DNA of 64,000 nucleotides. It comes from an uncultured bacterium (GTDB lineage Bacteria > Fidelibacterota > Marinisomatia > Marinisomatales > JAHJCW01). Location: positions 79,607 to 143,606 of the forward strand of contig CAZWKR010000006.1 of the NCBI GenBank assembly GCA_964634215.1. The letters are read 5' to 3'. The translations under genes and the position numbers were made by a program. This document shows positions 2,092-33,539 of this stretch, in pieces (position 1 is the stretch's first letter; each line of letters opens with the position of its first letter). A model generated the notes under the pieces. That model had not been told where the DNA came from. It saw only the letters and a list, made by a program, of their open reading frames with translations, and did no database searches.

Positions 2092-2096
2092 AATAT

Positions 2097-2558: not shown

Positions 2559-3844
2559 TTTATAAGTTCGATATTCAATTTTTCTTTAACCGAATCAATT
2601 TTTATTTTATCAATTACTTCTTTCGCAAATCCTTCAATCAAAAGTGATTTTGCAGTTACAAAATCAATTCCGCGGGAACGCAGATAAAAGATTGCATCCT
2701 CATCTAATTCGCCAGTGGCTGAACCATGAGAACATTTTACATCGTCAGCATAAATCTCTAATTGTGGATTAGAGTTCATTAACGCTTTTTTTGAAAGTAG
2801 AATATTTTTGTTTGTCTGTTGCGAATCGGTTTTTTGTGCATCAGGTTTAACTGATACTAATCCGTTAAATACGCCTTCTGATGATTCGTCTAAAATATAT
2901 TTAAATAATTGATGGCTGTTTGAATTGGGTTTATTATGACTAATAGTAGTATAATTTTCGATATGATCTTTACCGGATAATAAACTTAAACCGGAAATAT
3001 CCGTGCTACAATTGTCTCCATCAATTTGGACATTAATATTATTTCGGATTAATTCACCGCCAATATTAATTAGCTGAGTTTTATATGTACTGTTATCTTG
3101 TTGTTCAACAAAAATATGATTCAGACCTTTAGATTTAGGATCATTTTGCTGTATTAAAATATGGGACAGGATTGAGTTGTTATCAACTTGAATATTATAA
3201 ACAGAATTATTGAATAATTCTGTTTTGTTAGTATGTACATTTTCTTCTATTATCGTAACCTGACTGCTTTTACCGATTTTTATAAGATTTTGTTGATGAT
3301 GCTGTACAAAGTCTTTTTCATCAGATATAATATTTAGAATATGTAAAGGTTTATCTTCAATATAGTTTGAATCTATTTCAATAACGTATCCGCCGGTCGC
3401 AAAAGCCTTATTTAACAAAATAAACGGATTTGTACCATTTTCGATATAATCATTAGTTAAATCGCTAAATGATTCGGACATGTTTTTTACTGAAAATTGT
3501 TTGGCAATACCGTCAAATGTTGAAAGCTCAGCATCAAATGATCCATTTACAAATACAATTCGAAAGCTATTTTCAAAAGAATGATTAGTAATAATTTCTT
3601 TATCAATTTTACCAATTTCTCCATTCGTGAATTGATATTCGGTTTTTACCAGTGTTGATAAATCAGTAAAACGCCAATTCTCATGTTTTTTTGTTGGGTA
3701 TCCAACTTTCACAAATTTATCAAAGGCATCTTTTCGTAATTCCTGAATAGTTTTCGATTCGGAATTATGAGTTTGTTGAAAAGTATTAAAATTTGATTTA
3801 GCTATTAACATCCCATTTCCTAAGAAACTTTCTCCTCCAACCAA
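2543..3844 (-). CDS. sufD: Fe-S cluster assembly protein SufD
   Basis: 433 aa. C-terminal SufB/D region 'DDVKCSHGSATGELDEDAIFYLRSRGI'. Follows sufC. The start is uncertain, with an alternative ATG at 3811. Confidence 0.85.
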   Translation of the reverse strand: MVGGESFLGNGMLIAKSNFNTFQQTHNSESKTIQELRKDAFDKFVKVGYPTKKHENWRFTDLSTLVKTEYQFTNGEIGKIDKEIITNHSFENSFRIVFVNGSFDAELSTFDGIAKQFSVKNMSESFSDLTNDYIENGTNPFILLNKAFATGGYVIEIDSNYIEDKPLHILNIISDEKDFVQHHQQNLIKIGKSSQVTIIEENVHTNKTELFNNSVYNIQVDNNSILSHILIQQNDPKSKGLNHIFVEQQDNSTYKTQLINIGGELIRNNINVQIDGDNCSTDISGLSLLSGKDHIENYTTISHNKPNSNSHQLFKYILDESSEGVFNGLVSVKPDAQKTDSQQTNKNILLSKKALMNSNPQLEIYADDVKCSHGSATGELDEDAIFYLRSRGIDFVTAKSLLIEGFAKEVIDKIKIDSVKEKLNIELIKWLAK

Positions 3845-4569
3845 CGATAACCTTTATCTTCCAAAGTCAGTGCTAATTCTTTTCCACCTGATTTTACAAT
3901 TTTACCATCAATCATAACGTGAATAATATCAGGTTGGATATAATTAAGCAATCTCTGATAATGTGTAATTACTAAAAATGAGTTTTCCTTACTACGGTAA
4001 TCGTTAACACCTTTGGCAATTATTTTCAGTGCGTCGATATCAAGTCCTGAATCTGTTTCGTCGAGAATAGCTAATTTGGGCTTCAGTGTTATCATTTGTA
4101 AAATTTCATTACGTTTCTTCTCACCACCTGAGAAACCGGCATTGACGGATCTCCTTAGATATGACTCATCCATTTCTAGTTTCTTTAGATTTTCTTTGAT
4201 CAAAGTCATGAAATCTATGGCGTCTAATTCAATTTTCCCCTGATACTTTCTTTTGGCATTTAGCGCAGCTTTTAAAAAGTAAGTATTGTTCACTCCGGCA
4301 ATGACAGCAGGATATTGAAACGACATAAAAATTCCCTTAAGAGCACGTTCTTCGGGAGATAAATCCAATAAGTTTTTACCATTATATTGGATTTTACCTT
4401 TGGTCACATCATAATTGTCACTGCCTGAGATAACATTTGCGAGCGTGCTTTTACCAGACCCATTTAGTCCCATAATAGCGTGTGTCTCGCCGGGCTTAAT
4501 TGTTATATCAATTCCTTTTAATATTTGATTGCCTTCAACAGAGGCGTTTAAATTTTTAATTTCTAACAT
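3820..4569 (-). CDS. sufC: Fe-S cluster assembly ATPase SufC
   Basis: Walker A 'GLNGSGKST', ABC signature 'FSGGEKKR', Walker B 'LAILDETDSGLD'. Confidence 0.95.
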   Translation of the reverse strand: MLEIKNLNASVEGNQILKGIDITIKPGETHAIMGLNGSGKSTLANVISGSDNYDVTKGKIQYNGKNLLDLSPEERALKGIFMSFQYPAVIAGVNNTYFLKAALNAKRKYQGKIELDAIDFMTLIKENLKKLEMDESYLRRSVNAGFSGGEKKRNEILQMITLKPKLAILDETDSGLDIDALKIIAKGVNDYRSKENSFLVITHYQRLLNYIQPDIIHVMIDGKIVKSGGKELALTLEDKGYRWLEEKVS

Positions 4570-4616
4570 ATTCTTATTTTTTATTTAAATTTTAACATTC
4601 AAAACTCAAAGTTGCT

Positions 4617-6095
4617 TTACCCAACCGATCCTTCTAAACTGATTTCCATTAATTTATGCGCTTCAACAGCAAATTCCATAGGTAGTTCGGCGAATACCTC
4701 TTTGCAAAATCCGTTAACAATCATAGAAACTGCATCCTCTGTGGATATACCACGTTGATTACAGTAAAATAATTGGTCCTCTCCGATATTTGATGTTGTT
4801 GCTTCGTGTTCCATTTGTGCTGACGGATTCCGTACATCAATATATGGGAAAGTATGAGCACCGCATTTATCACCGATTAATATAGAATCGCATTGTGAAA
4901 AATTGCGTGCATTTTCCGCACTTTTCATAATTTTTACGCCACCGCGATAGGTGTTTTGTGATTTACCGGCTGATATACCTTTGGAAATGATAGTACTTTT
5001 TGTATTTTTTCCGATATGGATCATTTTTGAACCGGTATCTGCTTGTTGATAATTATTAGTCATTGCTACGGAATAGAATTCACCTACTGAATTGTCACCT
5101 TTTAGAATTACGCTTGGATATTTCCAAGTAATTGCAGAGCCGGTTTCTATCTGTGTCCATGATATTTTTGAATTCTTTCCCTTACAAAGTCCACGTTTTG
5201 TTACAAAATTGTAAATACCACCTTTACCTTCTTTGTCGCCGGGATACCAATTTTGCACTGTGGAATACTTGATGTTAGCATTTTTATGTGCTATCAATTC
5301 TACAACCGCAGCATGGAGCTGATTCTCATCACGCATTGGTGCGGTACAACCTTCTAAATAACTTACATGACTACCCGCCTCTGCAACAATTAATGTCCGT
5401 TCAAACTGTCCGGTTTGTGATGCATTGATACGAAAATATGTTGATAACTCCATTGGACAGCGAGCACCTTTCGGAATGTAAACAAATGAGCCATCGCTGA
5501 ATACAGCAGAATTAAGTGCCGAATAAAAATTATCAGCAGGAGGGACCGCCATTCCTAAATATTTTTTTATTAGATCGGGATGTTTGTGAACAGCTTCGGA
5601 AAACGGCATAAAAATTACACCGTGCTTTGCCAATTCTTCTTTGAATGTTGTAGCTACGGAAACGCTATCAAAAACAGCATCAACTGCCACATTTGATAAC
5701 ATTTTTTGTTCATCTAAAGGTATGCCTAGCTTGTTGTAGGTGTCCAATAATTCAGGATCAACCTCCTCCAAACTGCTTAATTTTTTCTTTTCTTTTGGAG
5801 CGGCATAATAACTTATCGCCTGGAAGTCAATTGGAGGATAATTGATCTTTGCCCAAGTTGGCTCAACCATTTTTTTCCAATTTCTGTATGATTTTAAACG
5901 CCACTCTAACAACCAGTCGGGTTCATTCTTTTTAGACGAAATAAGTCGGATAACATCTTCATTTAAACCGGGTGGAATTATTTCCTGTTCAATATCAGAT
6001 ACAAATCCATATTTATAATCCTGATTGATTGCATCATCAATTATTTTCTCTTCGCGGTCTTTAAAAGAATCTGATTTTTGTGGAACTTGCGACAT
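4617..6095 (-). CDS. sufB: Fe-S cluster assembly scaffold SufB
   Basis: 492 aa. '[17 protein letters not shown]', '[16 protein letters not shown]', '[22 protein letters not shown]'. Confidence 0.95.
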
Positions 6096-6096
6096 A

Positions 6097-6411
6097 TTAG
6101 ATATTCAACTTATTCCTGGCTTCATCGCTCATCATGTTAGAATTCCATTTGGGATCAAAGGTTATGTCAATTGAAATATCATTTATTCCATCTAAAGATG
6201 ATAATTTTGATTGTACATCTTCTTTGATGTGCTTGACCATCGGACAACCGGGAACGGTTAATGTCATAATAATAGCAATATCTTGTTTATCACCAGTTTT
6301 ACTATCGTTTATTTGAATATCATAGATCAATCCCAAATTCCATATATCAACCGGTATTTCCGGATCCATACATTGTTTTAATTTTTCAAGTACTTGTTCT
6401 TCAGTTATCAT
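6097..6411 (-). CDS. stand-alone DUF59 (metal-sulfur cluster biosynthesis) protein
   Basis: 104 aa. '[18 protein letters not shown]' and 'TLTVPGCPM'. Sits 1 nt upstream of sufB. Confidence 0.75.
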
Positions 6412-6418
6412 AAAAGTC

Positions 6419-6817
6419 CTATTTAGTTAAATCAGCTAAAGTCATATTTGAAAATAAATCTTTAATCGTATTATTGATACGTTCAATGGGTACACGAATA
6501 TTACATGTTCCTATGTGTCCGCAATCCGGATCATGCAAACAGTCTACTAATCCAACCGGTCCTTCAATAATCTCAATAAAATCATTTAATTTAATTTTAT
6601 CCAATGATTTTCTAAGTTTATATCCCCCACTTGGCCCTTGGATTGGTTCAATAATTTCCTGCTTAGCCAATTGTTGTAAAACTTTCGCTAAAAGCGATGC
6701 CGGCAAGTCATAATTCTCGGCCACTTCCTTTGCACTTGTTATCTCATCTTGTGCTTTACTCTGCATATGTTGCAGAGCAATTAAGGCGTATTCAGTTTTT
6801 TTGTTTAGCTTTAACAT
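6419..6817 (-). CDS. Rrf2-family transcriptional regulator, IscR-like (Fe-S cluster ligating)
   Basis: N-terminal wHTH 'MLKLNKKTEYALIALQHM'. Cys triad 'CLHDPDCGHIGTC' (C-x5-C-x5-C) spaced as in IscR. First gene of the suf operon. Confidence 0.85.
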   Translation of the reverse strand: MLKLNKKTEYALIALQHMQSKAQDEITSAKEVAENYDLPASLLAKVLQQLAKQEIIEPIQGPSGGYKLRKSLDKIKLNDFIEIIEGPVGLVDCLHDPDCGHIGTCNIRVPIERINNTIKDLFSNMTLADLTK

Positions 6818-7048: not shown

Positions 7049-7984
7049 TTACAATCCTGTTTCTTCTACTACTGATGCAACATGATCCACCGTGTTTTTA
7101 AGTGCGGCTTTTTCATCATCGGTCAAATCAATTTCAAGGATCTTTTCGATACCGTCACTACCTATAACACACGGAACACCAATAAAGTATCCGTTAACAT
7201 CATATTCACCTTCACATAGTGCTGCGGAAGGAATTACGCGTTTTTTATCTTTAAGATAAGATTCTACCATTTCCATAATCGATGCAGCAGGGCTAAAGAA
7301 CGCACTGCCATTTCCAAGTAGTTTAACGATTTCAGTACCGGCTTCGCGTGTGCGTTTTTCAATAGCCTCGATCTTTTCTTTGGATAAGAGCTTATCGATA
7401 GGAACTCCACCAACTGTTGCCAATCTTGAAAGCGGAACCATAGTTGGTCCATGTCCACCAAGAACAACACAGGACACGTCTTGTGCTGATAGTCCGGTTT
7501 CCATCGCAATAAATGCGCGGAAGCGGCCTGAGTCTAAAGCACCTGCCATTCCAACAACTCTATTTTTTGGAAGTCCACTGATCTTGTGAAAAGCATATAC
7601 AATAGCATCAAGCGGATTGGAAACCACGATCACAAATGCATCGGGTGCATATTTTTTTACATTGTTGGCGACATCTGTAATGATTCCCAAATTAACAGAA
7701 AGTAGGTCATCACGGGTCATTCCGGGCTTTCTTGGAACACCGGCTGTAATAACTACAACATCAGAACCTTCAATATCTTTGTAATCACTGGTTCCTGTGA
7801 TATTTGCATCATATCCGTCATGTGGTCTCAGTTCCATAATATCCAATGCTTTACCTTTCACCATTCCTTCAACTTGCGGAATATCAAATACTACGATATC
7901 ACCTAGTTCCTTTTGAGTACCAATTAGTGCGAGTATTCCACCAATTTGCCCACCGCCAATTAAGGCGATTTTTTTTCTTGCCAT
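7049..7984 (-). CDS. mdh: malate dehydrogenase (LDH-like family)
   Basis: 311 aa. Rossmann 'KIALIGGGQIGG', substrate loop 'ITAGVPRKPGMTRDDL', 'VLGGHG'. Confidence 0.9.
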   Translation of the reverse strand: MARKKIALIGGGQIGGILALIGTQKELGDIVVFDIPQVEGMVKGKALDIMELRPHDGYDANITGTSDYKDIEGSDVVVITAGVPRKPGMTRDDLLSVNLGIITDVANNVKKYAPDAFVIVVSNPLDAIVYAFHKISGLPKNRVVGMAGALDSGRFRAFIAMETGLSAQDVSCVVLGGHGPTMVPLSRLATVGGVPIDKLLSKEKIEAIEKRTREAGTEIVKLLGNGSAFFSPAASIMEMVESYLKDKKRVIPSAALCEGEYDVNGYFIGVPCVIGSDGIEKILEIDLTDDEKAALKNTVDHVASVVEETGL

Positions 7985-8000
7985 AATAAATTCTCCTATT

Positions 8001-9272
8001 TTATGCGTTTTCTTTTATCCATTCGGCAGTGATTGATTTCGGTCGAGTTATCGGCATACCTAATGCACGGTTGATAACCATTTGTGAAACCATACCCATC
8101 GCACGTGAAATACTGAATAGTACAGTATAGAAACTGAATTCGGTCATACCAAAATGATATAATAATGAACCGGAAGCTGCATCAACATTTGGCCATGGAT
8201 TTTTTGCTTTACCTTGTTCTTTTAATACATTTGGTACAACATCGAATAGATCACTAACGATATCAAATACAGGGTCACCCTTGATATGTTCTCTACCAAA
8301 ATTAATGAATGCTGTAAATCTAGGATCAGGGCAACGCAATACCGCATGACCATATCCCGGAACAACACGACCACTATTTAGACGATCCCACACGAATTTA
8401 CTTAATTCCTCTTGTGATGGTGAACCACCAAAATGCTCTTCAATTTCTAATACAAATTTGAGGCATTCTTGATTTGCGAGCCCGTGTAGTGGTCCGGCAA
8501 GTCCGTTTAATCCAGCGGATACCGCATAATATGGATCTGACAATGCTGACGCAACCGTAAGTCCACTAAATGCACTAACGTTTCCACCTTCATGATCACA
8601 ATGCAGCATGAGATATAGGCGCATCAATTTTTTTAACAGTCCGTCAGGATCATCAATCCCAAGCATGTGAGCAAAATTCGCACCCCAATCCAAATTTTTA
8701 TCAGGTTCGATGAGAGCACCTTTATCGAAACGAATTCGATAAACTCCAGCTCCCAATGCTGGTAATTTTGCAACTAATCGGATAGCATCATCTAACGTAG
8801 CTTTCCAATAATCTTGTTTTTGTAATCCTTTATCATATTGTTTTCTAAACTCAGATTCTTTTTCCATAACTAATATAGCTGCATTAAACATCACCATTGG
8901 ATGTGAGTCTTTAGGCATAGCCTTTAATACATCCCACACATATTGTGGTACTTCTGCATGCTCGGATAAATGTAATTGTAGATCTTTAAGAGCATCTTTA
9001 TCCGGTAGATCACCGGTCAACAATAGATGGAATACCTCTTCGGGAAGAATATCAGTTATATCTAATAATGGTCTGCCTCTAATTATCAGACCGGAATCTG
9101 CTGAAACAGCTGATGTATCACAGACCAAGCCTTTTACACCACGCATTCCACCATAAGCTTGTGCGACTGTTACATTACTAATAACCTTGTCGCCCTTTTC
9201 TTCAAGGAGTTGTTTCGCTTCATATCTCCAATCGGGTATTTTTTTACTTAACGTTTCTAATATTTTTGACAT
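8001..9272 (-). CDS. gltA: citrate synthase, eukaryote-like type
   Basis: 423 aa. 'HCDHEGGNVSAF...ASALSDPYYAVSAGLNGLAGPLHGLANQE' and 'PGYGHAVLRCPDPR' closely resemble mitochondrial citrate synthase motifs as I recall them. 16 nt upstream of mdh. Confidence 0.9.
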   Translation of the reverse strand: MSKILETLSKKIPDWRYEAKQLLEEKGDKVISNVTVAQAYGGMRGVKGLVCDTSAVSADSGLIIRGRPLLDITDILPEEVFHLLLTGDLPDKDALKDLQLHLSEHAEVPQYVWDVLKAMPKDSHPMVMFNAAILVMEKESEFRKQYDKGLQKQDYWKATLDDAIRLVAKLPALGAGVYRIRFDKGALIEPDKNLDWGANFAHMLGIDDPDGLLKKLMRLYLMLHCDHEGGNVSAFSGLTVASALSDPYYAVSAGLNGLAGPLHGLANQECLKFVLEIEEHFGGSPSQEELSKFVWDRLNSGRVVPGYGHAVLRCPDPRFTAFINFGREHIKGDPVFDIVSDLFDVVPNVLKEQGKAKNPWPNVDAASGSLLYHFGMTEFSFYTVLFSISRAMGMVSQMVINRALGMPITRPKSITAEWIKENA

Positions 9273-9457
9273 ATTAACCTCTTATTATTAATTAGAAAAA
9301 GCAATTAGTGAATATTAAGAACCAGGTATGTGCAGTGCACAAAACGCAACTTCTTAATCAATAAAAATTCATTGGGCACAGTTAAAAATAAAAACGAAAA
9401 GAATTATTTGCTAATTAATTCATACAAAATTAATTATATCAAACAATCTATATATTG

Positions 9458-9601
9458 TTATTTTTTAATCGGTTTTTTTACTTTACGAACACTGTTACTC
9501 TTGCAAGCTGGACATGCACGTTCCATAGGAATTTTACGGTCATACGGGCCGGTAAATTCATGTCCACAGCGCAAGCATTTAAAATCAACTATTTCAGCCA
9601 T
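9458..9601 (-). CDS. FmdB-family zinc-ribbon protein (47 aa)
   Basis: Below the ORF-track cutoff. Hand translation: MAEIVDFKCLRCGHEFTGPYDRKIPMERACPACKSNSVRKVKKPIKK, with a CxxC...CxxC pattern. Starts 16 nt after the hdrA stop on the same strand. Confidence 0.65.
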   Translation of the reverse strand: MAEIVDFKCLRCGHEFTGPYDRKIPMERACPACKSNSVRKVKKPIKK

Positions 9602-9617
9602 TATTTATTCTCAAATT

Positions 9618-12110
9618 TTATGCAGGCACACCTATCGCCGAATTATCGGATTTGGGTGTGATTTTTTTATTTTGTTTTTTTGCTCGTTTAGCTTCGGCTT
9701 TTTCTCGATCTTCTTTTAGAACCTTGATTGTGTGTTTAACTTCATTATCTGTGACATTTTTACGCATTTCATCAATATCTTTCATAGTTCGAGCCCACCT
9801 TTGTCCTTCAGCGGCACTTATCCATTCCATTTGTAAACGTTCTGGACGAATACCAAGTCTCTCCATTTTATCCCATAATTTTTCAACACGTTTTTGCGTC
9901 CAACGATTAGCATCAATGTAATGACAATCTGCAAAGTGACAGCCTGAGACAAGCACAATTGGTGCACCTTTTTCAAAGGCATGCAGTACAAAATCAGAAT
10001 CAACTCTACCACTGCACATCGTTCGGATAACCCTTTGAGATGTAGGATATTGCAATCTCGATAATCCTGCTAAATCAGCACCGGCGTATGAACACCAATT
10101 GCATGCAAATACTGTGACTTTATCCATTGGATTTTCATCTAAGATAGCATCAATCATAGTTGTGATTTGTGCATCCTCAAAATGTTTCATGGATAGTGCG
10201 TCAAAATTGCATTCTGCTGCACAAGTTCCGCATCCTTTACATAGAGCTTCTATCACTTCAGCAGGACTTCCGGCTTTTGCATCAGCTCCTTGAATAGCAT
10301 TGAACGGACAAACATTGGTGCAAATTCCGCAAGATGTACATAATTCGGTAAAGCATTCCGAGGTGATAGCTTCAATGTTTATCATATCCGAATTAAGCAA
10401 TACTTCTGCTCTAGCAACTGCGGCACTCGCTTGAGTTACACTGTCTTTTACATCTTTTGGAAATTCTGCGCAACCTGCAAAAAATACTCCACCTGTTGGT
10501 GCATCTACGGGTTTTAACTTTGGATGAGACTCCATAAAGAATCCATCTTCAGTTTTAGATAGAGTTAGCAGTTTTTGCACAGCTTCGGCATCACGTCTTG
10601 GAATAACTCCAACTGATAGAACTACCATATCAAAATTGTAATCTTTTACAGTATTTGCAACCGTGTCCTCTACAATTAGAGTGAGATTTTTTGTCTTTGG
10701 ATCCTCGAAGATCTCACCCGGTAGTCCTCGTATATATTGTACACCGGTTTTCTTACTTCTAATATATAAATCTTCAAATCCTTTTCCAAAAGCGCGAATA
10801 TCCATATAGAATACTGCAATTTCGGTATCCGGATAATGATCTTTTAACAATAAACTGTCCTTAACTGTATTCATGCAGCAAATATTACTACAATACGGAT
10901 TGCCGGTTTCTGAATGTGATCGTGAACCAACGCATTGAATGAAGGCAATCTTCTTGGGTACTTCTCTATCTGTTGGTCGGAAAAAATGTCCTTCCGTTGG
11001 ACCACCGGCAGAAATTAATCTTTCGAACTCCATGCTTGTGATGACATTTTCGTATTTGGTATAACCATATTCATCCATCTCGGTTGGATCGTAAACATCC
11101 ATTCCGGTAGCAACTATTACAGCACCAACATTGACTTCTATTATTTCATCCTTCATATCGAAATCGATACATTCTTTTTCACAAACATCCGCACATTTGC
11201 CGCATGCAATGGGATTATGTCCTAAACAATCATCATTATCTAAAATATAAACAGATGGAACTGCTTGGGGAAACGGCATATATATCGCTTTGCGAGATGA
11301 AAAACCCTGTTGGAATTCATCAGCTACAGCGACAGGGCAAACCTTTTCACATTCACCACACGCGTTGCAAACTGTTTCATCTACAAATCGTGCTTTTTTG
11401 CGAATTTTTACATTAAAATTACCGATATAACCGCTTACTTCTTCTACTTCGCTATATGTGTATAAATTAACATTGGGATGTCGACCGACATCCATCATTT
11501 TTGGTCCGAGTATTCATATGGAACAATCCATAGTGGGATAGGTCTTGTCTAATGTTGCCATTAGCCCACCAATGGATGCCTCCTTCTCAACCAAATTTAC
11601 TTTATAACCTGCATCTGCCAAATCAAGGGCGGACTGAATACCCGCCACACCACCGCCAATAACAAGAACTTCTTTGGTCATTGGTACTTTCGATTCTGTT
11701 TGCTCTTCCAATAATCTCGCTCTAGCGACCGATGACTTGACAATGTCTTTAGCTTTTTCAGTTGCACCATCATAATCATCTAAATGTACCCAACTGCAAT
11801 GCTCACGTATATTGGCCATTTCCATTAGATATGGATTTAATCCCGCCTCTTCAACACAATTGCGAAAAGTAGGTTCATGCATCCGGGGAGAGCAAGAGGC
11901 CACAACTACACGATTTAAATTGTGCTCTTTGATATATTTTTTTATTTCTTGTTGGCCGGGTTCTGCGCATGTATACTTATTTACAATTGAGCACACAACA
12001 TTAGGAAGTGTTTCTGCATGTTTAGCGACCTCTTGACAATCAAGCGATCCTGCAATATTACTTCCGCATTCGCAAACAAATACTCCTACACGTAAATCGT
12101 TTTCACTCAT
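9618..12110 (-). CDS. hdrA: HdrA-like flavoprotein fused to MvhD domain; selenocysteine-containing (in-frame UGA at 11514-11516)
   Basis: ORFs 11514..12110 and 9618..11498 share one frame (2493 nt). Read-through gives 'LDKTYPTMDCSI-U-ILGPKMMDVGRHPNV'. Also present: FAD motif 'VIGGGVAGIQSALDLA', an inserted ferredoxin 'CNACGECEKVCP', a C-terminal ferredoxin 'CTSCGICTNVCP'/'CKGCGTCAAEC', and MvhD 'FACNWCSYAGADLAG...MCSGRV...VSGCHFADCHY'. Confidence 0.8.
11476..11493 (-). promoter_or_regulatory. candidate bacterial SECIS hairpin for hdrA UGA
   Basis: Minus-strand RNA GGAUGUC-GGUC-GACAUCC: a perfect 7-bp stem with a GGUC loop, starting 20 nt 3' of the UGA. Confidence 0.6.
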
Positions 12111-12154
12111 TCGGTTATCCTGTCTTATCGACTATTAATAATATTAGCATTTAA

Positions 12155-13294
12155 TTATTCCATTCTCTCTAACACAACAGTAGAGATATCGCGAATATCC
12201 ATTTCATAATTATCTCTCACAACTTTATCTTTCATTGTACAAGTGAGATGGATATGACATTTGGGACATGCTACCGTTAAAATATCCGCTCCTGTTTCTT
12301 TTGCTTGTTTTAATCTTTCTTTTTGTATCCCTTTAGATGTGATATCACAATTCATCCAAGCACTCACACCGCAACATAGCGATTTTTTATCATGCTGCAT
12401 CATTTCATGAAAATGTTCACCGTCATTATGTTGTAAAACCTTGCGTGGTTCATCGTAAATACCCATATGGCGTCCTAGCCTACATGGGTCTTGAAATGTA
12501 ATATCTGTATCGGATTCTTTTAAATTAAGTTCATCAGTTGAGACCATATCAGCTAAAAACTGACTCATATGCATCAATTTTGGTTTTACCTTAAATCCAT
12601 GCTCAGGATATAAATTCATAAAGGCACTCATGCATTCGGCACAGGAAAATAAAATTGTTTTCGCGCCTCTTTTTTCAACTGATTCTATATTCTTTTCCGC
12701 GAGCATTTTAAAATTTTCCACATCACCATTCCATAAAAGGTCATGTCCACAACATCTCTCATCTGACATCACTACAGGAGTAACGCCAAGTTTGTTTAAA
12801 ATTTTAATGCTACTTTTTGCAGCATCAATTGTTGAAATAGCTAGATCATCAAAGAATACATCAAAATACGGGGCGCATCCTACATAGTATAATATGTCAC
12901 CATGATCACTTATCTTTAGATCATCAGTAATCCAATCGAGGCGATTTTGTTTAATATCTTTGGCAGTCATAGTTGTTTGTAGAAGTTCCATAGCCCCAGC
13001 GTGTGAGCATTTACCGTGAAAGCCGGAATCTTGTGCAGACGAACGAACAATCTGAGTTAGAGTACTATAGTCAATATTTGCCGGACAAACTGCATCACAA
13101 CGGCGACAAGTCAGGCAACTCCATAAATCATAATCGATATATAGAGAATCAAATTCATTGCGGATTGTTTTCGTTAACATTGAGCGAGGAGAGTACCGTT
13201 GGCTAAAAAGTGAAACAGGACAAACGGCAGTGCATTTTCCACATTCTAGACAACCATAGGCATTAGTGGCTTTAATTTGATCTACTAAATCCAT
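12155..13294 (-). CDS. HdrC/HdrB-like fusion (2x[4Fe-4S] + two CCG domains), HdrD-like
   Basis: 379 aa. 'CLECGKCTAVCP' and 'CLTCRRCDAVCP'. CCG motifs 'ERCCGHDL...FSCAEC' and 'DPCRLGRH...LCCGVSAW...ACPKCH'. Confidence 0.8.
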   Translation of the reverse strand: MDLVDQIKATNAYGCLECGKCTAVCPVSLFSQRYSPRSMLTKTIRNEFDSLYIDYDLWSCLTCRRCDAVCPANIDYSTLTQIVRSSAQDSGFHGKCSHAGAMELLQTTMTAKDIKQNRLDWITDDLKISDHGDILYYVGCAPYFDVFFDDLAISTIDAAKSSIKILNKLGVTPVVMSDERCCGHDLLWNGDVENFKMLAEKNIESVEKRGAKTILFSCAECMSAFMNLYPEHGFKVKPKLMHMSQFLADMVSTDELNLKESDTDITFQDPCRLGRHMGIYDEPRKVLQHNDGEHFHEMMQHDKKSLCCGVSAWMNCDITSKGIQKERLKQAKETGADILTVACPKCHIHLTCTMKDKVVRDNYEMDIRDISTVVLERME

Positions 13295-15606
13295 TATTTG
13301 AATTTCCTCGCATAGTTGTTAACCACTTCAACAAACTTATCAGTGTTTTTATCAGACACCGTGTCATACTCGATACGATTTTTGTCATATCCGAGCATGT
13401 GTGCCAATTGTTGTACTTTAGCATACGTTTCAGCAAATCGCTTTGCCCCAAACTCATAATGACATTCATCAGCGCTACATCCAACAACTAATACACCATC
13501 TGCACCTTCTTCAAGAGCACGTAAAAGGAAAGTCGATTCAATTCGTCCGGTACACATCGTTTGGATAAATATAAAATTTGTATTTTTGTATTTAGAAGTA
13601 TTTATATTTTCGAAATCAGTACCATTCCAATTACAGGAATAAACAATAATGTTCCGTTTTTTTGAATCAATATTTTTAAATTTGTACGATAACCATTCGG
13701 ACGTATATCTACACGGTTGAATTGCGCTCGATGGGCAAAATGTTACACACGTTCCGCACCCACGACATAATTCCGGATCAATTTGTGATACATATACCTC
13801 ATCATTTTTCTGTACTAATTGGCAGGCATCATATTCGCAAACGGTTACGCAATCTCCGCACCCACGACATAACTCTTCTTTTACATTTGGAATGTAACTA
13901 TTTAATTCGATTTGTACATCTTTGCCGGTAGCTGCTTTTAATGTCCCCAGCAAACTTCCGTTTCTTAAATCCTCACTTTTGAAATCGGGCGGTAAGCGTA
14001 ATACATAATCGTTTTGTCCGTTTGTACCATGTATAACTGATAAACCCTTATCACAATCAGACACACAAATAAAACATTCTCCGCACGGACCGCAACGTAA
14101 GCAACGTTGAGCTTCTGCAATTGCAGTTGCCTCATCAAACCCGTATTCAACTTCCTTGAAGCTGTTTTTCCTTTTTGAAACTTCTTGCATCGGTGTAGGT
14201 GTGCGCTTTATTTTGGGCTGATGCTTTAAATCGACTTTAACTTCAGTTTCAATTGGATTGGTTTTGTTATCGGACTGTTCAAGTGCCTCGCCATTAATAA
14301 ATCTTTCGATTGATGTAGCGGTTATGTGTCCTTGAGCAATAGCATCAATAACAGTATTTGGTCCTGTTACTGCATCACCACCGGCAAAAACGCCGGGGAT
14401 ATTAGTTGCCATAGTATTTTCATCGGCTACAAATGTTTGCCAGCGGGAAATGTCAATATTATGATCTTTTGGTAAAAATGACAGATCGGGCTCTTGACTG
14501 ATAGCAGGTATAATTATATCCGCTTCAATAATAAATTCAGAATTTTTGATAGGGATTGGTCTCGCACGACCGCTTTCATCGGGTTTGCCAAGTTTCATTT
14601 TTGTACATTCCAAACCGACAATTCTACCATTTTTACCAACTATTTTTGCCGGTGCTGCAAGATAATGTATTTTAATACCTTCATTTTCCGCTTCATCGAT
14701 TTCTTCATCCTCTGCCGGCATTTCTTGCCGTGTGCGACGGTAAACGATATTTACTTCAGAACCCAAACGCAAGGCAGTCCTGGCAGCATCAATAGCAGAA
14801 TTACCACCACCAATTACAATTACTTTTTCTCCCGGTTTTTTTGGTTTACCAAGATTTACTTCGCGTAAAAATGTTACGGCATCTAAAAATTCTTTATATT
14901 TATCTTCACCGGGAATCCCCAGTTTTTTACCAATATGAGCACCAATTGCTAAATAAACCGCATCAAATTCCTTTAATAATTTGTTATAATCCTGTTTGCC
15001 GGATATCTTTTTATTGGTTTTTATTTTCACGCCTAAATTGCGAATATAATCAATTTCGGTTTTTAGAATATCGCGTGGCATTCTATATGAAGGGATTCCG
15101 GCAATCAGCATTCCGCCAGGTTCAGATAATTCCTCAAAAATTGTAACATTGAAACCGCTTTTAACGAGATCATGTGCAGCAGTTAATCCGGCTGGACCTG
15201 AACCAATAACGGCAATTTTTTCTTTTCGAGTTCCTGCAGTTTTTTGTGGTTTAGGTATGGGATGATCTAATTCGTAATCAGCAACAAATCTTTTTAAGGA
15301 GCGAATGGCAACAGGAGCATCTATTTGATTTCGATTACATAAGGATTCGCATGGATGAGTACAAACCCTTCCGCAAATACCCGGCAATGGATTTTTTTCT
15401 CTCACAACATGTAAAGCTTCATGAAATTTACCAGCCGCGATCAATGAGACATATGCTTTAACATTAACACCTGCAGGGCAGGCTTCCATACAGGGAGATG
15501 GGTCAACTTTTCCTATTGGATACTGGACATTTGGTTTGTCGGAAAACGTAATAGTATTTTCATGTTTCCTGATAAAATTTTTAAATGTGTTGTCTGAAGT
15601 TCCCAT
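13294..15606 (-). CDS. GltD/NfnB/SudA-like NAD(P)H:FAD oxidoreductase fused to ferredoxin and MvhD domains
   Basis: 770 aa. 'CMEACPAG...CGRVCTHPCE', 'IAVIGSGPAGLTAAHDL', 'VIVIGGGNSAIDAAR', 'VFAGGDAVTGP'. Then 'CRGCGDCVTVCE' and 'CRGCGTCVTFCP'. C-terminal MvhD 'YSCNWNG...MCTGRIE...VVGCSADECHY'. Confidence 0.8.
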   Translation of the reverse strand: MGTSDNTFKNFIRKHENTITFSDKPNVQYPIGKVDPSPCMEACPAGVNVKAYVSLIAAGKFHEALHVVREKNPLPGICGRVCTHPCESLCNRNQIDAPVAIRSLKRFVADYELDHPIPKPQKTAGTRKEKIAVIGSGPAGLTAAHDLVKSGFNVTIFEELSEPGGMLIAGIPSYRMPRDILKTEIDYIRNLGVKIKTNKKISGKQDYNKLLKEFDAVYLAIGAHIGKKLGIPGEDKYKEFLDAVTFLREVNLGKPKKPGEKVIVIGGGNSAIDAARTALRLGSEVNIVYRRTRQEMPAEDEEIDEAENEGIKIHYLAAPAKIVGKNGRIVGLECTKMKLGKPDESGRARPIPIKNSEFIIEADIIIPAISQEPDLSFLPKDHNIDISRWQTFVADENTMATNIPGVFAGGDAVTGPNTVIDAIAQGHITATSIERFINGEALEQSDNKTNPIETEVKVDLKHQPKIKRTPTPMQEVSKRKNSFKEVEYGFDEATAIAEAQRCLRCGPCGECFICVSDCDKGLSVIHGTNGQNDYVLRLPPDFKSEDLRNGSLLGTLKAATGKDVQIELNSYIPNVKEELCRGCGDCVTVCEYDACQLVQKNDEVYVSQIDPELCRGCGTCVTFCPSSAIQPCRYTSEWLSYKFKNIDSKKRNIIVYSCNWNGTDFENINTSKYKNTNFIFIQTMCTGRIESTFLLRALEEGADGVLVVGCSADECHYEFGAKRFAETYAKVQQLAHMLGYDKNRIEYDTVSDKNTDKFVEVVNNYARKFK

Positions 15607-15626
15607 AAAATGAATTTTGATTTATT

Positions 15627-16163
15627 TTAATTTTTCAGTGATTTTCCGAAGTTGTAACCTTTTTCTAGTGCTTCAATATTGGTATCTAAAAATCGGTCAG
15701 GAACTGACCCAGGTAATGCCTTTTTCATTGCGTCAAGACTAACAACATCTGTCATTGCGGTAAAGAATCCAACCATTACAACGTTCGCAAAAATGCGATT
15801 TCCCATTTCTTCAGCAATTCGGGTAGCGGGTACTGAGTACAGTTTAACATCCTTGCGAACCGTTTTGGGTTTTACTAGGTCAGAGTCTGTGAGAACTATG
15901 CTGCCTTTTACAGGGTCACCGATAAATTTTTCATAAGCTTCTTGTGACATCGACACTAAAATTTGCGGTGCAACAATATATGGATATAAAACCTTATCGT
16001 TATCAATTACAACCTGTGCAGAGCACGCTCCACCGCGAGCTTCTGGTCCAAAACTTTGTGTTAGTGTAGCAAATTTACTATCAAATATTGAGGCTGCTTT
16101 TCCAATCAGCATTCCTGATTTTATAATTCCCTGTCCTCCAAAACCTGAAAATCTAATATCCAT
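15627..16163 (-). CDS. 2-oxoacid:ferredoxin oxidoreductase gamma subunit
   Basis: 178 aa. 'IRFSGFGGQGIIKSG' and 'GPEARGGA', typical of OFOR gamma. Confidence 0.85.
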   Translation of the reverse strand: MDIRFSGFGGQGIIKSGMLIGKAASIFDSKFATLTQSFGPEARGGACSAQVVIDNDKVLYPYIVAPQILVSMSQEAYEKFIGDPVKGSIVLTDSDLVKPKTVRKDVKLYSVPATRIAEEMGNRIFANVVMVGFFTAMTDVVSLDAMKKALPGSVPDRFLDTNIEALEKGYNFGKSLKN

Positions 16164-17068
16164 TATTTGGTTCCTTTATATGGAATGTATTTGTCACCTA
16201 ACTTGTTTTTTAAGAATTTGTCTCGGCTTGTATAGAAATCGGGTTTGTCCTTATCAACAAATTTTCCAACAATGATCTCTTTTTGATAATCGATGTCAAT
16301 ATCTTTTGTATTTGCGCCATGCTGTATTTTTGCTGTATCATGATAAAATCGCATTAGATCAAGCCCCGATCCAAGACGGTTTCTCCTGGCATAAAGAGTT
16401 GGGCATGGAGCGATAACTTCAATAAATGAAAATCCTGGTTTCACGAGTGCCTCTGCAATCGATTTTGTCGCTCTGCGAATATGTAATGATGTCCAACGCG
16501 CTACATAAACAGCTCCACACGATTCTGCTAAATATGGTAAATTAAATGGAAATTCGTAAGCGCCAAAAGGTGCTGTGGAAGCGTTAGCTTCTTGAGGTGT
16601 CGTAGGACCTGCTTGGCCACCGGTCATTGCGTAATTAAAATTGTTTATACAAATAATAGTTAGATTCATATTTCTACGAGCTGCATGGATAAAATGATTT
16701 CCTCCAATTGCAGCTATATCACCATCTCCGCTTATTACCGCAACTGTCATCTCGGGATTTCCTAGAGATAATCCGGTTGCAAATGGTATTGCTCTACCAT
16801 GAGTAGAATGAAATGAATCTAGTCTTAAATATCCCGCTGCTCTACCCGAACAACCAATTCCAGAAACTACACCAACTTTATCACGATCGAGACCCGATTT
16901 TTGCAAACCGGCTATAAAAGCTGTTAAAACAGTTCCAATACCACAAGTTGAACACCAAATATGCGGCAGACGTTCCGTTCGCAAATAGTCTTGCATCGGA
17001 TGTTTCATTGGTTCAGGAGATTTTGGAATTTTTAAAGTACTTGTAGTTGGTGCTGTAATCTCGCTCAT
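16163..17068 (-). CDS. 2-oxoacid:ferredoxin oxidoreductase beta subunit (TPP-binding)
   Basis: 301 aa. Cys ligands 'WCSTCGIG' and 'GIGCSGR'. TPP motif 'SGDGDIAAIGGNH...NNFNYAMTGGQ'. Confidence 0.9.
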   Translation of the reverse strand: MSEITAPTTSTLKIPKSPEPMKHPMQDYLRTERLPHIWCSTCGIGTVLTAFIAGLQKSGLDRDKVGVVSGIGCSGRAAGYLRLDSFHSTHGRAIPFATGLSLGNPEMTVAVISGDGDIAAIGGNHFIHAARRNMNLTIICINNFNYAMTGGQAGPTTPQEANASTAPFGAYEFPFNLPYLAESCGAVYVARWTSLHIRRATKSIAEALVKPGFSFIEVIAPCPTLYARRNRLGSGLDLMRFYHDTAKIQHGANTKDIDIDYQKEIIVGKFVDKDKPDFYTSRDKFLKNKLGDKYIPYKGTK

Positions 17069-18225
17069 TTTACACCTTTCTTAATTGCTTTTAAAATATC
17101 GTTAGGATCGTGTACCCAACCACCTGCGTGTGGTACATGAATTGTTTTTGTCTTTCCAGCCACACATCTTTCGACTTCAAGAGAAATCTGACCAAGGTTG
17201 ATTTCAGGAACAACAAATGCTTTTATTTTGCTGGCAAGTTTGCTAATTAATTTTTCAGGAAATGGCCATACAACTATTAGGCGAATTGTACCAACTTTTA
17301 TTCCGGCTGCTCGAGCATCTTGTACGGCTTTTAACGCGACACGAGATGTTATTCCATACGAAATAACTATTACTTCAGCCCCATCAACTTGATCTTCTTC
17401 TAGTAGTCGTATTTTTTCTTCATTTTTAAGAATTTTATCAACTATATGTCTAACATTCTTATCTTGGGCCTCTGAATTGAGCGTTGGATATCCTCTTTCA
17501 TCATGTGTTAAGCCCGTTAGATGTATATTATAACCTTCACCAGCTTTTATCATCGGAGCGATTTCTCCTTTACCATTGAAATTAAATGGTCGATAATCTT
17601 CTTTTTTACCATTATAATATTTACGTGGTACAATTTCGATTTTGTCGGCATCAGGTATGACAACTTTTTCTGTCATATGTCCAACACATTCATCCATCAT
17701 GAACATAACTGGGACACGCCAAATCTCAGATAAGTTGAATGCTGTAATTGTGAGATCAAAACATTCTTGAGGAGAATTTGGGGACAGGGCAATGACTTCA
17801 TAGTCACCATGAGAACCCCAACGGGCTTGCATCATATCGGCTTGAGCGGTAAGTGTGGGTAGTCCGGTTGATGGACCTCCGCGTTGAACATTAACTATAA
17901 CACAGGGCGTTTCAAGCATTACCGCAAGTCCGATGTTTTCCATCATTAGTGAAAATCCAGGACCTGATGTAACTGTCATTACTTTTGGACCTCCCCATGC
18001 GGCTCCAATTATTGCAGCCATAGATGCAATCTCGTCTTCCATTTGAATAAACATTCCGCCGACTAATGGGAAACGTTCCGCAATTCTTTCTGCTACTTCT
18101 GTTGATGGCGTTATGGGATATCCTGCTAAAAATCTACATCCTGCCGCTATTGCACCTTCGCCACAAGCGTGATCACCATCAATATAGTGATTCCCCGTTG
18201 CTACTCCAACTGGATCTGCTTTCAT
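17065..18225 (-). CDS. 2-oxoacid:ferredoxin oxidoreductase alpha subunit
   Basis: 386 aa. 'AGYPITPSTE' and 'VNVQRGGPSTGLPT'. Confidence 0.9.
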   Translation of the reverse strand: MKADPVGVATGNHYIDGDHACGEGAIAAGCRFLAGYPITPSTEVAERIAERFPLVGGMFIQMEDEIASMAAIIGAAWGGPKVMTVTSGPGFSLMMENIGLAVMLETPCVIVNVQRGGPSTGLPTLTAQADMMQARWGSHGDYEVIALSPNSPQECFDLTITAFNLSEIWRVPVMFMMDECVGHMTEKVVIPDADKIEIVPRKYYNGKKEDYRPFNFNGKGEIAPMIKAGEGYNIHLTGLTHDERGYPTLNSEAQDKNVRHIVDKILKNEEKIRLLEEDQVDGAEVIVISYGITSRVALKAVQDARAAGIKVGTIRLIVVWPFPEKLISKLASKIKAFVVPEINLGQISLEVERCVAGKTKTIHVPHAGGWVHDPNDILKAIKKGVK

Positions 18226-18527
18226 GATTTTGCCTCTTTTTTTAGAACATCGTCAATGTCGGGATGGGTCGATTTTCCTGCAACTACAAATATCGAAAAA
18301 TCAGGACAAATCATTTCGCAAAGTGTGCAGTTAACGCAAGCTCCTTGTTTGATAACTACTGGGTAATGATATCCTTTCCGATTGAAATCTTTAGATAATG
18401 CTAAAACATCTTTTGGGCAATATTCGATGCAGAATTCACAACCCTTGCACTGTTCAATATCGATATGCACATCGCCGTGTGGTACTTCAATAGTATTTAT
18501 ATCTAATGGGGCGCGCCAGTAACTCAT
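18222..18527 (-). CDS. 2-oxoacid:ferredoxin oxidoreductase delta subunit (2x[4Fe-4S] ferredoxin)
   Basis: 101 aa. 'CKGCEFCIEYCP' and 'CVNCTLCEMICP'. The gene order D-A-B-C matches Helicobacter oorDABC (2-oxoglutarate-type). Confidence 0.85.
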   Translation of the reverse strand: MSYWRAPLDINTIEVPHGDVHIDIEQCKGCEFCIEYCPKDVLALSKDFNRKGYHYPVVIKQGACVNCTLCEMICPDFSIFVVAGKSTHPDIDDVLKKEAKS

Positions 18528-18548
18528 TTTAATTCCTTAATAAATTAA

Positions 18549-18818
18549 TTATTGGACGAAATTTTCGCCTTCTTCTTGTTTAACTTTTAAATAAAATTCA
18601 CAGACATCGCAACTTTCAACCATTTTCAGTTGGATGCATGTCGGTTCACCATCTTGATAAGTTCCTGAAACATGCCAACAATATCTTCCACCAAACATTC
18701 CACCATTAATACCATTAAAAGATTTATATTGTACAGAGTGACATTTTCCATATTTGTCGACATTTGCTCCACCGTGTTCTCTACCGCATTGGTTAAAATC
18801 CCAACAGTTCATTTTCAT
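18549..18818 (-). CDS. stand-alone Cys-rich two-CW-domain-like protein
   Basis: 89 aa. 'NCWDFNQCGRE...GGRYCWHVSGT...CDVCEF' resembles the two-CW domain pattern (NCW..CGR / GR.CW) as I recall it. 21 nt upstream of the OFOR delta gene. Confidence 0.6.
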   Translation of the reverse strand: MKMNCWDFNQCGREHGGANVDKYGKCHSVQYKSFNGINGGMFGGRYCWHVSGTYQDGEPTCIQLKMVESCDVCEFYLKVKQEEGENFVQ

Positions 18819-33519: not shown

Positions 33520-33539
33520 TTATTATATTGGAGTAAATA

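Follow-up and report, generated by a model that had tools for sequence, protein, structure and literature searches.

The 64,000-nucleotide stretch of contig CAZWKR010000006.1 analysed here (the window, 64 kb) carries a cluster of nine minus-strand genes in which a 2-oxoacid:ferredoxin oxidoreductase (OFOR) adjoins three proteins of heterodisulfide reductase type: a GltD/NfnB-like flavoprotein ending in an MvhD domain (GltD-MvhD), a fused HdrC/HdrB-like protein (HdrCB), and an HdrA-MvhD fusion containing selenocysteine (Sec). Our results show that this cluster is real, conserved and uncharacterised. From its genes we infer an HdrA-type complex fed by NADPH and sharing its ferredoxin with an OFOR of the 2-oxoglutarate:ferredoxin oxidoreductase (OGOR) type, a reading in which we place moderate confidence; that the complex forms, that it bifurcates electrons, that it is specific for NADPH, which substrates it uses, and which way the electrons flow are all parts of the mechanism that we infer. 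The role of the cluster is probably to balance NADPH, ferredoxin, and a third acceptor around the tricarboxylic acid (TCA) cycle.

The nine genes run from position 18818 to 9458 and, according to the table of open reading frames (ORFs) and their translations, encode proteins of 89, 101, 386, 301, 178, 770, 379, 830, and 47 residues. In transcription order the junctions are a 21-nt gap, two 4-nt overlaps, a 1-nt overlap, a 20-nt gap, a 1-nt overlap, a 44-nt gap, and a 16-nt gap. The initial annotation had described nine packed genes with these sizes and eight junctions, all of which the coordinates reproduce exactly, and Pfam and NCBIfam agree with its domain assignments for all nine. It had also seen no terminator between the genes; a consensus scan of 8.8–21.3 kb likewise finds no terminator-like site in the intergenic gaps of the cluster. 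The seven matches in that region compare with 7.7 expected from shuffles, and those on the minus strand within the cluster all lie inside coding sequence.

We assessed whether the linkage is conserved in relatives, a check that the initial annotation had set. A metagenome scan seeded with only the ferredoxin and MvhD tail of GltD-MvhD returned 80 loci, of which 25 were informative, having at least 700 nt upstream and at least 2200 nt downstream of the gene; HdrA was counted as present at 50% identity or more. In 16 of these 25, OFOR gamma lies directly upstream and HdrCB and HdrA downstream, at GltD-MvhD identities of 39–89%. Five others have HdrCB only, one (locus L165) has OFOR, HdrCB, and the zinc ribbon without HdrA, one has HdrCB and HdrA without OFOR, and two have none of the three beside GltD-MvhD. 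Of the 52 loci that extend far enough downstream, 48 have HdrCB directly after GltD-MvhD. The loci with the full set span 35–71% GC, indicating that several distant lineages carry it, and the gap between OFOR gamma and GltD-MvhD is below 200 nt in most loci (834–923 nt in L114, L115, and L118). Among seven places in genome assemblies, five keep the order OFOR, GltD-MvhD, HdrCB, HdrA(Sec), zinc ribbon, with GltD-MvhD identities of 64% (L081), 55% (L082, a 3-Mb Fidelibacterota genome, CP070656), 52% (L087), and 48% (L083/L084 and L086). The linkage is thus conserved in relatives, and because it is kept on many unrelated contigs, the arrangement is not due to chance.

These counts bear on the simplest alternative, that the OFOR and the hdr-like genes are mere neighbours in an island of ferredoxin and TCA genes, sharing neither function nor complex. 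Zixibacteria RBG-1, for instance, clusters ferredoxin-dependent complexes for which no joint complex is claimed (PMC3903129); GltD-MvhD stands as an orphan gene, alone, on two WOR-3/Stahlbacteria-type contigs; and OFOR gamma is not upstream of it in 20 of 49 loci. Against this, order, orientation, and mostly very short distances persist down to 39% identity and across 35–71% GC, and the gaps in the window range from −4 to 44 nt with no terminator-like site. We therefore consider mere co-location very improbable.

By alignment, the HdrA-MvhD protein is a near-canonical HdrA with a fused MvhD, the architecture of HdrA2. It passes the NCBIfam HdrA2 model (NF040770; 1187.5 bits against a cut-off of 1100) and aligns end to end with a solved HdrA (5odc_A; 825 bits, residues 6–656 of the query with 4–649 of the chain), and its inserted ferredoxin domain retains the Cys motifs. 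Its MvhD part matches 5odc_D with 138 bits over residues 664–779, where Pfam places a FlpD domain at 665–781. The TGA at codon 199 is the sole in-frame stop of the 830-codon frame, which mechanical ORF calling breaks into pieces of 198 and 626 residues. The initial annotation had read it as Sec, and this reading is well supported because the aligned codon is TGA in all 36 HdrA homologues of the loci fetched, a covarying hairpin with a GGUC loop follows it, and SelB adjoins the cluster in one relative (L086/L169, the same contig), divergent and just downstream. U199 falls within the HdrA motif DCS(I/M)C/U-IL at the position of Cys197.

The candidate Sec insertion sequence (SECIS) was tested by covariation; at the gathering threshold Rfam reports two tRNAs only, with no SECIS or riboswitch family. 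Across 26 distinct sequences, the hairpin (consensus GGAUGYC-GGUC-GRCAUCC, a 7-bp stem with a GGUC loop) has standard pairs in 97.8% of pair cells, with compensatory changes at two pairs (UA↔CG in 10 sequences and GC↔CG in 2). Its covariation score was matched by 0 of 500 shuffles, and slid partner columns pair at 25–57%. The UA↔CG switch exchanges Val and Ala codons at one position and synonymous Arg codons at its partner; the covariation therefore goes beyond what protein conservation alone would give. In most of the gene calls that we saw, the Sec codon divides HdrA into two ORFs; in L082 HdrA is called as one 828-residue ORF despite the TGA. An additional hairpin, CCUCGG-UC-CGAGG, stands directly after the UGA and before the SECIS-like hairpin in L083, L084, L086, L111, L114–L116, and L118; the first ~15 nt after the UGA of the window HdrA do not contain it.

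The GltD-MvhD protein begins with a Fer4_20 and FAD/NAD(P)H flavoprotein region, followed by an additional Cys cluster, a ferredoxin domain of 2x[4Fe-4S] type, and, at the C terminus, the MvhD [2Fe-2S] domain. It passes NF009410 (547.9 bits against a cut-off of 516). Its best structural matches are 9bov, 9n5u, and 8oh5, GltD-like domains of Stn/NfnABC-type enzymes, which are better matches than NfnB; its N-terminal 440 residues match the NADPH-binding NfnB structures 5jca_L and 4ylf_B at ~350 bits, and its C terminus matches the MvhD chain 5odc_D. The protein is 42% identical to an NfnB encoded beside an NfnA gene and has the motif GGGNSA...IVYRR (GGGNxA...IVYRR) in common with it. By the usual rule, a GXGXXA motif with basic residues after the second strand indicates NADPH, and the motif in GltD-MvhD favours NADPH over NADH as the donor. 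The first Cys motif of NfnB (FKEV..G....A..EA.RCxxC), found within residues 37–114 in the NfnB comparison, sits at residues 465–518 of GltD-MvhD. The segment is N-terminal in NfnB and follows the flavoprotein domain here, and the Fer4_20 region therefore appears permuted, in the manner of a circular permutation. The initial annotation had proposed that a GltD-like module replaces the hydrogenase or Flx modules of known complexes, which we retain in qualified form: it fits the best structural matches (NfnB and Stn/NfnABC) and the shared GGGNSA...IVYRR motif.

A separate genome scan with a full-length GltD-MvhD alignment picked up generic GltD motifs and returned 80 mostly unrelated GltD/NfnB loci, none from Marinimicrobia. 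At five of these (L002, L004, L007, L008, and L015; Bathyarchaeia, Desulfobacteraceae) the N-terminal part of HdrA runs into a GltD domain, resembling HdrL or type III HdrA; at four others (L017, L031, L044, and L071; Desulfomonilaceae, Omnitrophota, Phycisphaerae) a GltD-like gene stands among OFOR subunit genes.

HdrCB combines an HdrC-like 2x[4Fe-4S] N terminus with two complete CCG motifs (CXnCCGXmCXXC), namely C140-X40-C181-C182-G183-X34-C218-XX-C221 and C271-X35-C307-C308-G309-X33-C343-XX-C346. The ten CCG cysteines are invariant across 20 homologues, C221 nearly so, and the two Pfam CCG domains score 94.6 bits. The best NCBIfam match is to residues 132–479 of TfrB, the HdrCB-like half of that protein, below the cut-off; the HdrC models give 40–59 bits and the HdrB model TIGR03288 gives 25 bits, all far below theirs. 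We call the protein HdrD-like because its sequence lies nearer to TfrB, LdhH, GlpC, and DsrK than to HdrB, whose model gives just 25 bits. An AlphaFold (AF2) model of the monomer (predicted local distance difference test score 83) has Foldseek matches to Mycobacterium smegmatis EtfD, LutA, HdrB, and HdrC, with a template modeling score of 0.64–0.68 against HdrB, normalised by target length. One homologue (P0199; 521 residues, 57% identical) has a fused MvhD (FlpD) domain, which hints that MvhD may dock on, or work with, HdrCB directly.

All four OFOR subunits are present, including a thiamine pyrophosphate (TPP)-binding beta and a ferredoxin-like delta, and the alpha subunit passes NF006412, a generic model named "2-oxoacid:acceptor oxidoreductase subunit alpha". 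Judged by its best matches, the enzyme belongs to the OGOR-related branch. In the PDB these are 1yd7, 8ys5 (2-oxoglutarate synthase), and 6n2n (OGOR) for alpha and 8ys5_C, the beta subunit of a 2-oxoglutarate ferredoxin oxidoreductase, for beta; structures of pyruvate:ferredoxin oxidoreductase (PFOR) and oxalate oxidoreductase match far more weakly. The OGOR-specific NCBIfam models are likewise the best specific matches, that for beta being the 2-oxoglutarate:ferredoxin oxidoreductase beta model, and all lie below their cut-offs (alpha 377 of 579 bits, beta 224 of 364, and delta 76 of 125). Because of these cut-offs, and because the window encodes a second OFOR, we regard 2-oxoglutarate/succinyl-CoA only as the probable substrate. 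The second enzyme, of KorAB type (30640–33519, plus strand), comprises a 615-residue gamma-alpha fusion passing TIGR03710 and a 343-residue beta subunit, and is directly followed by the alpha and beta subunits of a class I (Fe-S) fumarate hydratase (region 30640–34998, plus strand). It could equally be the OGOR: there are two OFORs near TCA genes, and either may be the 2-oxoglutarate enzyme. Elsewhere, L083 and L169 share a six-subunit OFOR with two alpha-beta pairs, and in L082 (5940–6476, CP070656) alpha is called as a 178-residue C-terminal fragment and delta was not detected by tblastn, which may reflect a degraded OFOR or an assembly error.

In the mechanism that we propose, the unit would consist of two partners sharing ferredoxin, the OGOR-type OFOR and a soluble heterodisulfide-reductase-like complex. 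The FAD of the GltD/NfnB-like protein would oxidise NADPH, and from there single electrons would pass along the Fe-S chain and the MvhD [2Fe-2S] cluster of this protein to the FAD of HdrA; in Mvh-Hdr structures, MvhD is the adaptor that feeds HdrA. At the HdrA flavin the electron pair would be split. One electron would leave through the inserted ferredoxin domain of HdrA to ferredoxin, or straight to OFOR delta, and the other would pass the HdrC-like clusters and arrive at the pair of non-cubane CCG clusters in HdrCB, where a high-potential acceptor, putatively a disulfide or persulfide, would be reduced. Taken as a whole, the scheme would amount to a reversible reaction, 2 NADPH + Fd(ox) + acceptor ↔ 2 NADP+ + Fd(red) + reduced acceptor: forward, it would provide the OFOR with low-potential ferredoxin for reductive carboxylation, and in reverse, ferredoxin reduced by the OFOR during 2-oxoacid oxidation would yield NADPH by confurcation. 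The energetics fit this scheme. The potential of NADPH is near −320 mV. Values of roughly −420 mV or below are quoted for ferredoxin and of about −140 mV for a heterodisulfide (PMC5861303). The proposal draws support from the closeness of HdrA to structurally defined bifurcating HdrA, the Sec codon, the NfnB-like flavoprotein with its MvhD domain, the two preserved CCG motifs and the HdrC- and HdrB-like fold of HdrCB, the conserved linkage, the TCA-related genes beside the cluster, and the described precedents.

Several observations weigh against this proposal. The GltD-MvhD and HdrCB pair occurs without HdrA or OFOR in five of the 25 informative loci, and L165 combines OFOR, GltD-MvhD, HdrCB, and zinc ribbon without HdrA, so that HdrA is perhaps not the sole or obligatory coupling site. 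HdrA carries an MvhD of its own, which leaves the docking of the second MvhD ambiguous. HdrCB resembles CCG proteins of the HdrD/TfrB/EtfD/GlpC type more than HdrB, and some of these give their electrons to quinone or a flavoprotein, not to a disulfide. No candidate for a thiol/disulfide carrier is evident besides the small four-Cys zinc-ribbon protein. Finally, the OGOR-specific models all fall short of their cut-offs, and the second OFOR adjoins a fumarase.

The first of these observations leaves room for the NfnB-like flavin as the coupling site. The pair loci without OFOR or HdrA (L120, L127, L138, L139, and L145; 33–41% identical) encode, for example at L127 1946–10806 and L139 3489–13234, a ~700-residue Fer2_4-Pyr_redox_2-Fer4-BFD protein followed by a 389-residue DAO-family dehydrogenase; L127 adds pyrroline-5-carboxylate reductase and aldehyde dehydrogenases, and L139 has NuoF-like and HydC-like proteins upstream. 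In this proline-dehydrogenase-like context, GltD-MvhD plus HdrCB looks like a portable electron-transfer module. L165 (1451–10350) reads sucC, sucD, OFOR delta, alpha, beta, and gamma, GltD-MvhD, HdrCB, and zinc ribbon, with no HdrA within the 6.5 kb that follow. Bifurcation might then occur at the FAD of GltD-MvhD, the two Fer4_20 clusters conducting one electron to ferredoxin or the OFOR and the other reaching HdrCB and the acceptor by way of the C-terminal Fe-S chain and of MvhD, which would stand in for NfnA; HdrA-MvhD would be the add-on of one clade, serving as a second coupling site or a ferredoxin-side wire. Such a scheme accords with the constancy of the pair (48 of 52 loci), with its occurrence both in the proline-dehydrogenase-like context and with the OFOR of L165, and with the resemblance of the GltD part to a true NfnB (42% identity; ~350 bits to NfnB structures). 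The best-matching structures (9bov, 9n5u, and 8oh5) speak against it, being Stn/NfnABC GltD-like domains, which serve as the NADPH entry site of enzymes that bifurcate elsewhere, and the OFOR-linked clade keeps HdrA highly conserved and always with Sec, indicating a central role. On balance we find bifurcation at the GltD-MvhD flavin quite unlikely.

It is also conceivable, if unlikely, that nothing is bifurcated and that the proteins form a plain chain which, in an oxidative TCA cycle, re-oxidises OFOR-reduced ferredoxin and passes the electrons to NADP+, as a ferredoxin:NADP+ oxidoreductase, and/or to a thiol-disulfide pool in redox homeostasis. The oxidative TCA genes seen near the cluster (citrate synthase, malate dehydrogenase (MDH), isocitrate dehydrogenase (IDH), and sucCD) would suit such a chain, many CCG proteins are not partners in bifurcation, and HdrA2 also performs simple ferredoxin-dependent reductions (PMC5296606). 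A three-protein Sec machine of ~2000 residues would, however, be a costly way to do the job of a small ferredoxin-NADP+ reductase (FNR) or of NfnAB, which is itself encoded beside the cluster in L083, and the three-armed HdrA architecture is complete, with both CCG clusters invariant or nearly so. This costly, conserved machinery and the conserved adjacency of the genes are why we rate the plain chain and mere co-location below HdrA-based coupling.

Within HdrA-based coupling, one locus suggests a more specific function. In L169 (1–16077, the contig of L086), a same-strand string of genes begins with a TfrB-N-terminal-like Fe-S protein, a TfrA-like flavoprotein (best NCBIfam match TfrA, 302 bits against a cut-off of 718), and a glyoxalase-fold protein, and continues with sucC, sucD, the six-subunit OFOR, GltD-MvhD, HdrCB, HdrA(Sec), and the zinc ribbon. 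Together with the best match of HdrCB to half of TfrB, this string raises the idea of a "ferredoxin charger", in which the Hdr-like complex would bifurcate NADPH electrons and hand the uphill electron directly to the OFOR for the synthesis of 2-oxoglutarate from succinyl-CoA and CO2, and the reduction of fumarate to succinate would be the downhill sink. The downhill electron would travel via a TfrA-like flavoprotein docked on HdrCB or via a small thiol/disulfide shuttle. Because the flavoprotein was found in L169 only, we consider this distinctly improbable. For the same reason, a fumarate-reductase-like flavoprotein was rejected as a general companion of the cluster among the loci examined.

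Table 1. Features of the cluster and its downstream flank in the window, in order of transcription
Feature	Coordinates	Strand	Basis or remark
Two-CW domain protein, 89 aa	18549..18818	-	NCBIfam NF045718, 78.3 bits vs cut-off 35
OFOR delta, 2x[4Fe-4S] ferredoxin-like, 101 aa	18222..18527	-	Pfam Fer4_7/Fer4_21; NCBIfam OGOR_delta, OorD below cut-off
OFOR alpha, 386 aa	17065..18225	-	POR_N + PFOR_II; NF006412, 569.6 bits vs cut-off 411
OFOR beta, TPP-binding, 301 aa	16163..17068	-	TPP_enzyme_C
OFOR gamma, 178 aa	15627..16163	-	Pfam POR; NF006323, 196 bits vs cut-off 235
GltD/NfnB-like flavoprotein (GltD-MvhD), 770 aa	13294..15606	-	Pfam Fer4_20 + Pyr_redox_2 + 2x[4Fe-4S] + FlpD (MvhD)
Fused HdrC/HdrB-like (HdrD-like) protein (HdrCB), 379 aa	12155..13294	-	Pfam Fer4_8 + CCG x2
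HdrA-MvhD fusion selenoprotein, 830 aa, U199	9618..12110	-	HdrA + FlpD; NCBIfam HdrA2
In-frame UGA read as Sec, codon 199	11514..11516	-	Aligns with Cys197 of solved HdrA (5odc_A)
bSECIS-like hairpin GGAUGUC-GGUC-GACAUCC	11476..11493	-	Begins 20 nt past the UGA
CxxC...CxxC zinc-ribbon protein, FmdB family, 47 aa	9458..9601	-	Zn_ribbon_8 and TIGR02605, both slightly below cut-off
AT-rich stem-loop followed by UUUUCGUUUUUAUUUUU	9383..9448	-	Candidate intrinsic terminator, ~10-75 nt past the zinc-ribbon stop
Citrate (Si)-synthase	8001-9272	-	Downstream, 185 nt past the zinc ribbon
Malate dehydrogenase (MDH)	7049-7984	-	Downstream of citrate synthase

The two ends of the cluster differ in their conservation. 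The initial annotation had counted the two-CW gene as part of the unit, and we rejected it as a member of the conserved core, because tblastn finds it upstream of OFOR in five nearer relatives only (L093, L097, L101, L102, and L109). It is absent from L081–L087 and is best regarded as peripheral, restricted to nearer relatives. A zinc-ribbon homologue, by comparison, is found after HdrA in most loci that extend far enough, and after HdrCB in L165, which lacks HdrA; by gene order it is the conserved last gene of the unit. The AT-rich hairpin and U-run in the 185-nt gap before citrate synthase weakly suggest that the unit ends there, after the zinc ribbon. The stem-loop was missed by the terminator scan, which requires G+C, in this 35%-GC genome, and the whole-gap fold z-score is −0.96.

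Citrate synthase, with MDH where the sequence allows, also follows the zinc ribbon in L090, L092, L093, L095, L099, and L101, and other loci have further TCA-related neighbours: IDH and NfnAB (L083), sucCD (L086 and L165), and malic enzyme (L081). Directly downstream of MDH in the window, and in the orientation of the Fe-S-rich cluster, lie a SUF operon (SufB, SufC, SufD, NifU-like, FeS_assembly_P, and cysteine desulfurase) and an Rrf2-family regulator that precedes it (332–6817, minus strand).

The host is a marine bacterium of Marinimicrobia type. Homologues of the 770- and 379-residue proteins are named Candidatus Marinimicrobia/Neomarinimicrobiota, Fidelibacterota, FCB group, and KSB1, and the window (~35% GC) encodes outer-membrane LptF/G, the peptidoglycan protein PBP1, a type IV pilus, a sigma-54 activator, and Fib_succ_major. 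An archaeal origin, prompted by the closeness of HdrA to methanogen HdrA, was rejected on the grounds of these Marinimicrobia/Fidelibacterota/FCB homologues and the bacterial envelope and pilus genes. Because the host is a bacterium, CoM-S-S-CoB is unlikely as the substrate, and no F420- or CoM/CoB-related genes were seen in the 64-kb window; the GltD-type NADPH module also speaks for a donor other than F420H2. The name of the NCBIfam HdrA2 model, "CoB-CoM heterodisulfide reductase HdrA2", is thus probably wrong about the substrate for a bacterium.

Oxygen-minimum zones, sulfidic basins, and the deep ocean harbour abundant Marinimicrobia (SAR406)/Fidelibacterota and allied groups, whose energy metabolism has, to our knowledge, been described almost exclusively through lists of genes. 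Publications on Marinimicrobia mostly mention "hdrABC" only briefly or treat it as Mvh-Hdr (e.g. PMC8359207). If the coupled machine exists as proposed, it would add a new input module to the HdrA family, a GltD/NfnB-like NADPH dehydrogenase that brings along an MvhD adaptor. It would likewise offer a concrete and testable answer to how low-potential ferredoxin is supplied or disposed of in non-phototrophic, non-hydrogenotrophic bacteria with ferredoxin-dependent 2-oxoacid enzymes, and would extend HdrA-based coupling to a CO2-handling enzyme beyond methanogens. Should the fumarate sink suggested by L169 hold, the branch from fumarate through succinate and succinyl-CoA to 2-oxoglutarate could run on NADPH alone, a bacterial counterpart of Hdr-Fwd.

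The initial annotation had called the system undescribed, and this stands for the composition and not for its parts. Full-text literature searches found no description of the composition, of which an earlier mention elsewhere is possible; each building block has a described precedent. A fusion of HdrA with MvhD is known from HdrA2B2C2 (PMC5296606), a fusion of GltD to HdrA from HdrL and type III HdrA (PMC2702500, PMC12054007), and an NADH-linked input from Flx-Hdr. The nearest description is that of Zixibacteria RBG-1, where NfnAB, Mvh/Hdr, pyruvate:ferredoxin oxidoreductase (POR), and OGOR are clustered (PMC3903129).

Among known systems, NfnAB (NfnSL) and Stn/NfnABC share with the window the NfnB/GltD-type FAD and 2x[4Fe-4S] NADPH module in the N-terminal 440 residues of GltD-MvhD. 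Unlike them, the window system lacks an NfnA/PyrK-like or NuoF-like partner, no NfnA-type (DHODB_Fe-S_bind/FNR-like) gene being found in the cluster, and its flavoprotein has a ferredoxin and MvhD extension and the shifted Cys motif. FlxABCD-HdrABC of Desulfovibrio vulgaris and HdrL/type III HdrA are alike in that a pyridine-nucleotide module feeds HdrABC via an MvhD-like protein, and HdrL/type III HdrA also in the association of a GltD-like NAD(P)H domain with HdrA. For Flx-Hdr and HdrL systems, a non-methanogen disulfide acceptor has been envisaged, with DsrC proposed (PMC2702500, PMC12054007). In contrast to HdrL, the window GltD is a separate 770-residue protein with its own ferredoxin and MvhD. 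In contrast to Flx-Hdr, its motif points to NADPH and not NADH, and OFOR and TCA links replace dsr genes, of which there are none nearby; Pfam finds no FlxA/B/C-type domains among the nine proteins, only MvhD-like ones. The window system is therefore not a member of Flx-Hdr or NfnAB, whose defining partners are absent.

TfrAB, the thiol:fumarate reductase of Methanothermobacter, is related through the HdrCB-like half of TfrB, the best NCBIfam match of HdrCB. It differs in its TfrA, since neither the window cluster nor the loci examined, except L169, have a TfrA-like flavoprotein, and the models score far below cut-off. The association of Hdr with formylmethanofuran dehydrogenase in methanogens (Fdh/Vhu-Hdr-Fmd/Fwd; PDB 7bkb, PMC13518236) offers the parallel of a bifurcating HdrA core joined to a low-potential, CO2-handling enzyme of ferredoxin level, which allows low-potential electrons to be spent where they arise. 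That association is physical, whereas the one in the window is genetic. The window partner is a TPP-dependent 2-oxoacid oxidoreductase instead of a Mo/W enzyme, with no polyferredoxin wire, and the predicted donor is NADPH instead of H2 or formate.

The closest comparison for the HdrA part is the ferredoxin- and F420H2-dependent HdrA2B2C2 of Methanosarcina acetivorans (PMC5296606). Both systems have an HdrA-MvhD fusion, are soluble (in the window, by prediction), lack a hydrogenase, and encode CCG-bearing HdrB/C-type partners beside HdrA. The window differs in that HdrB and HdrC form one HdrD-like polypeptide below the HdrB threshold, HdrA contains Sec, and an OFOR is linked to the unit in an operon-like manner. 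In the window, the GltD/NfnB-like NADPH module is a protein apart, with an MvhD domain of its own, whereas in HdrA2B2C2 F420H2 reacts at HdrA2 itself. The authors of that work predicted NADH-type donors and other disulfides for bacterial homologues (PMC5296606). Taken together, the window system appears to fit HdrA2B2C2 only partly, and it is its HdrA that qualifies.

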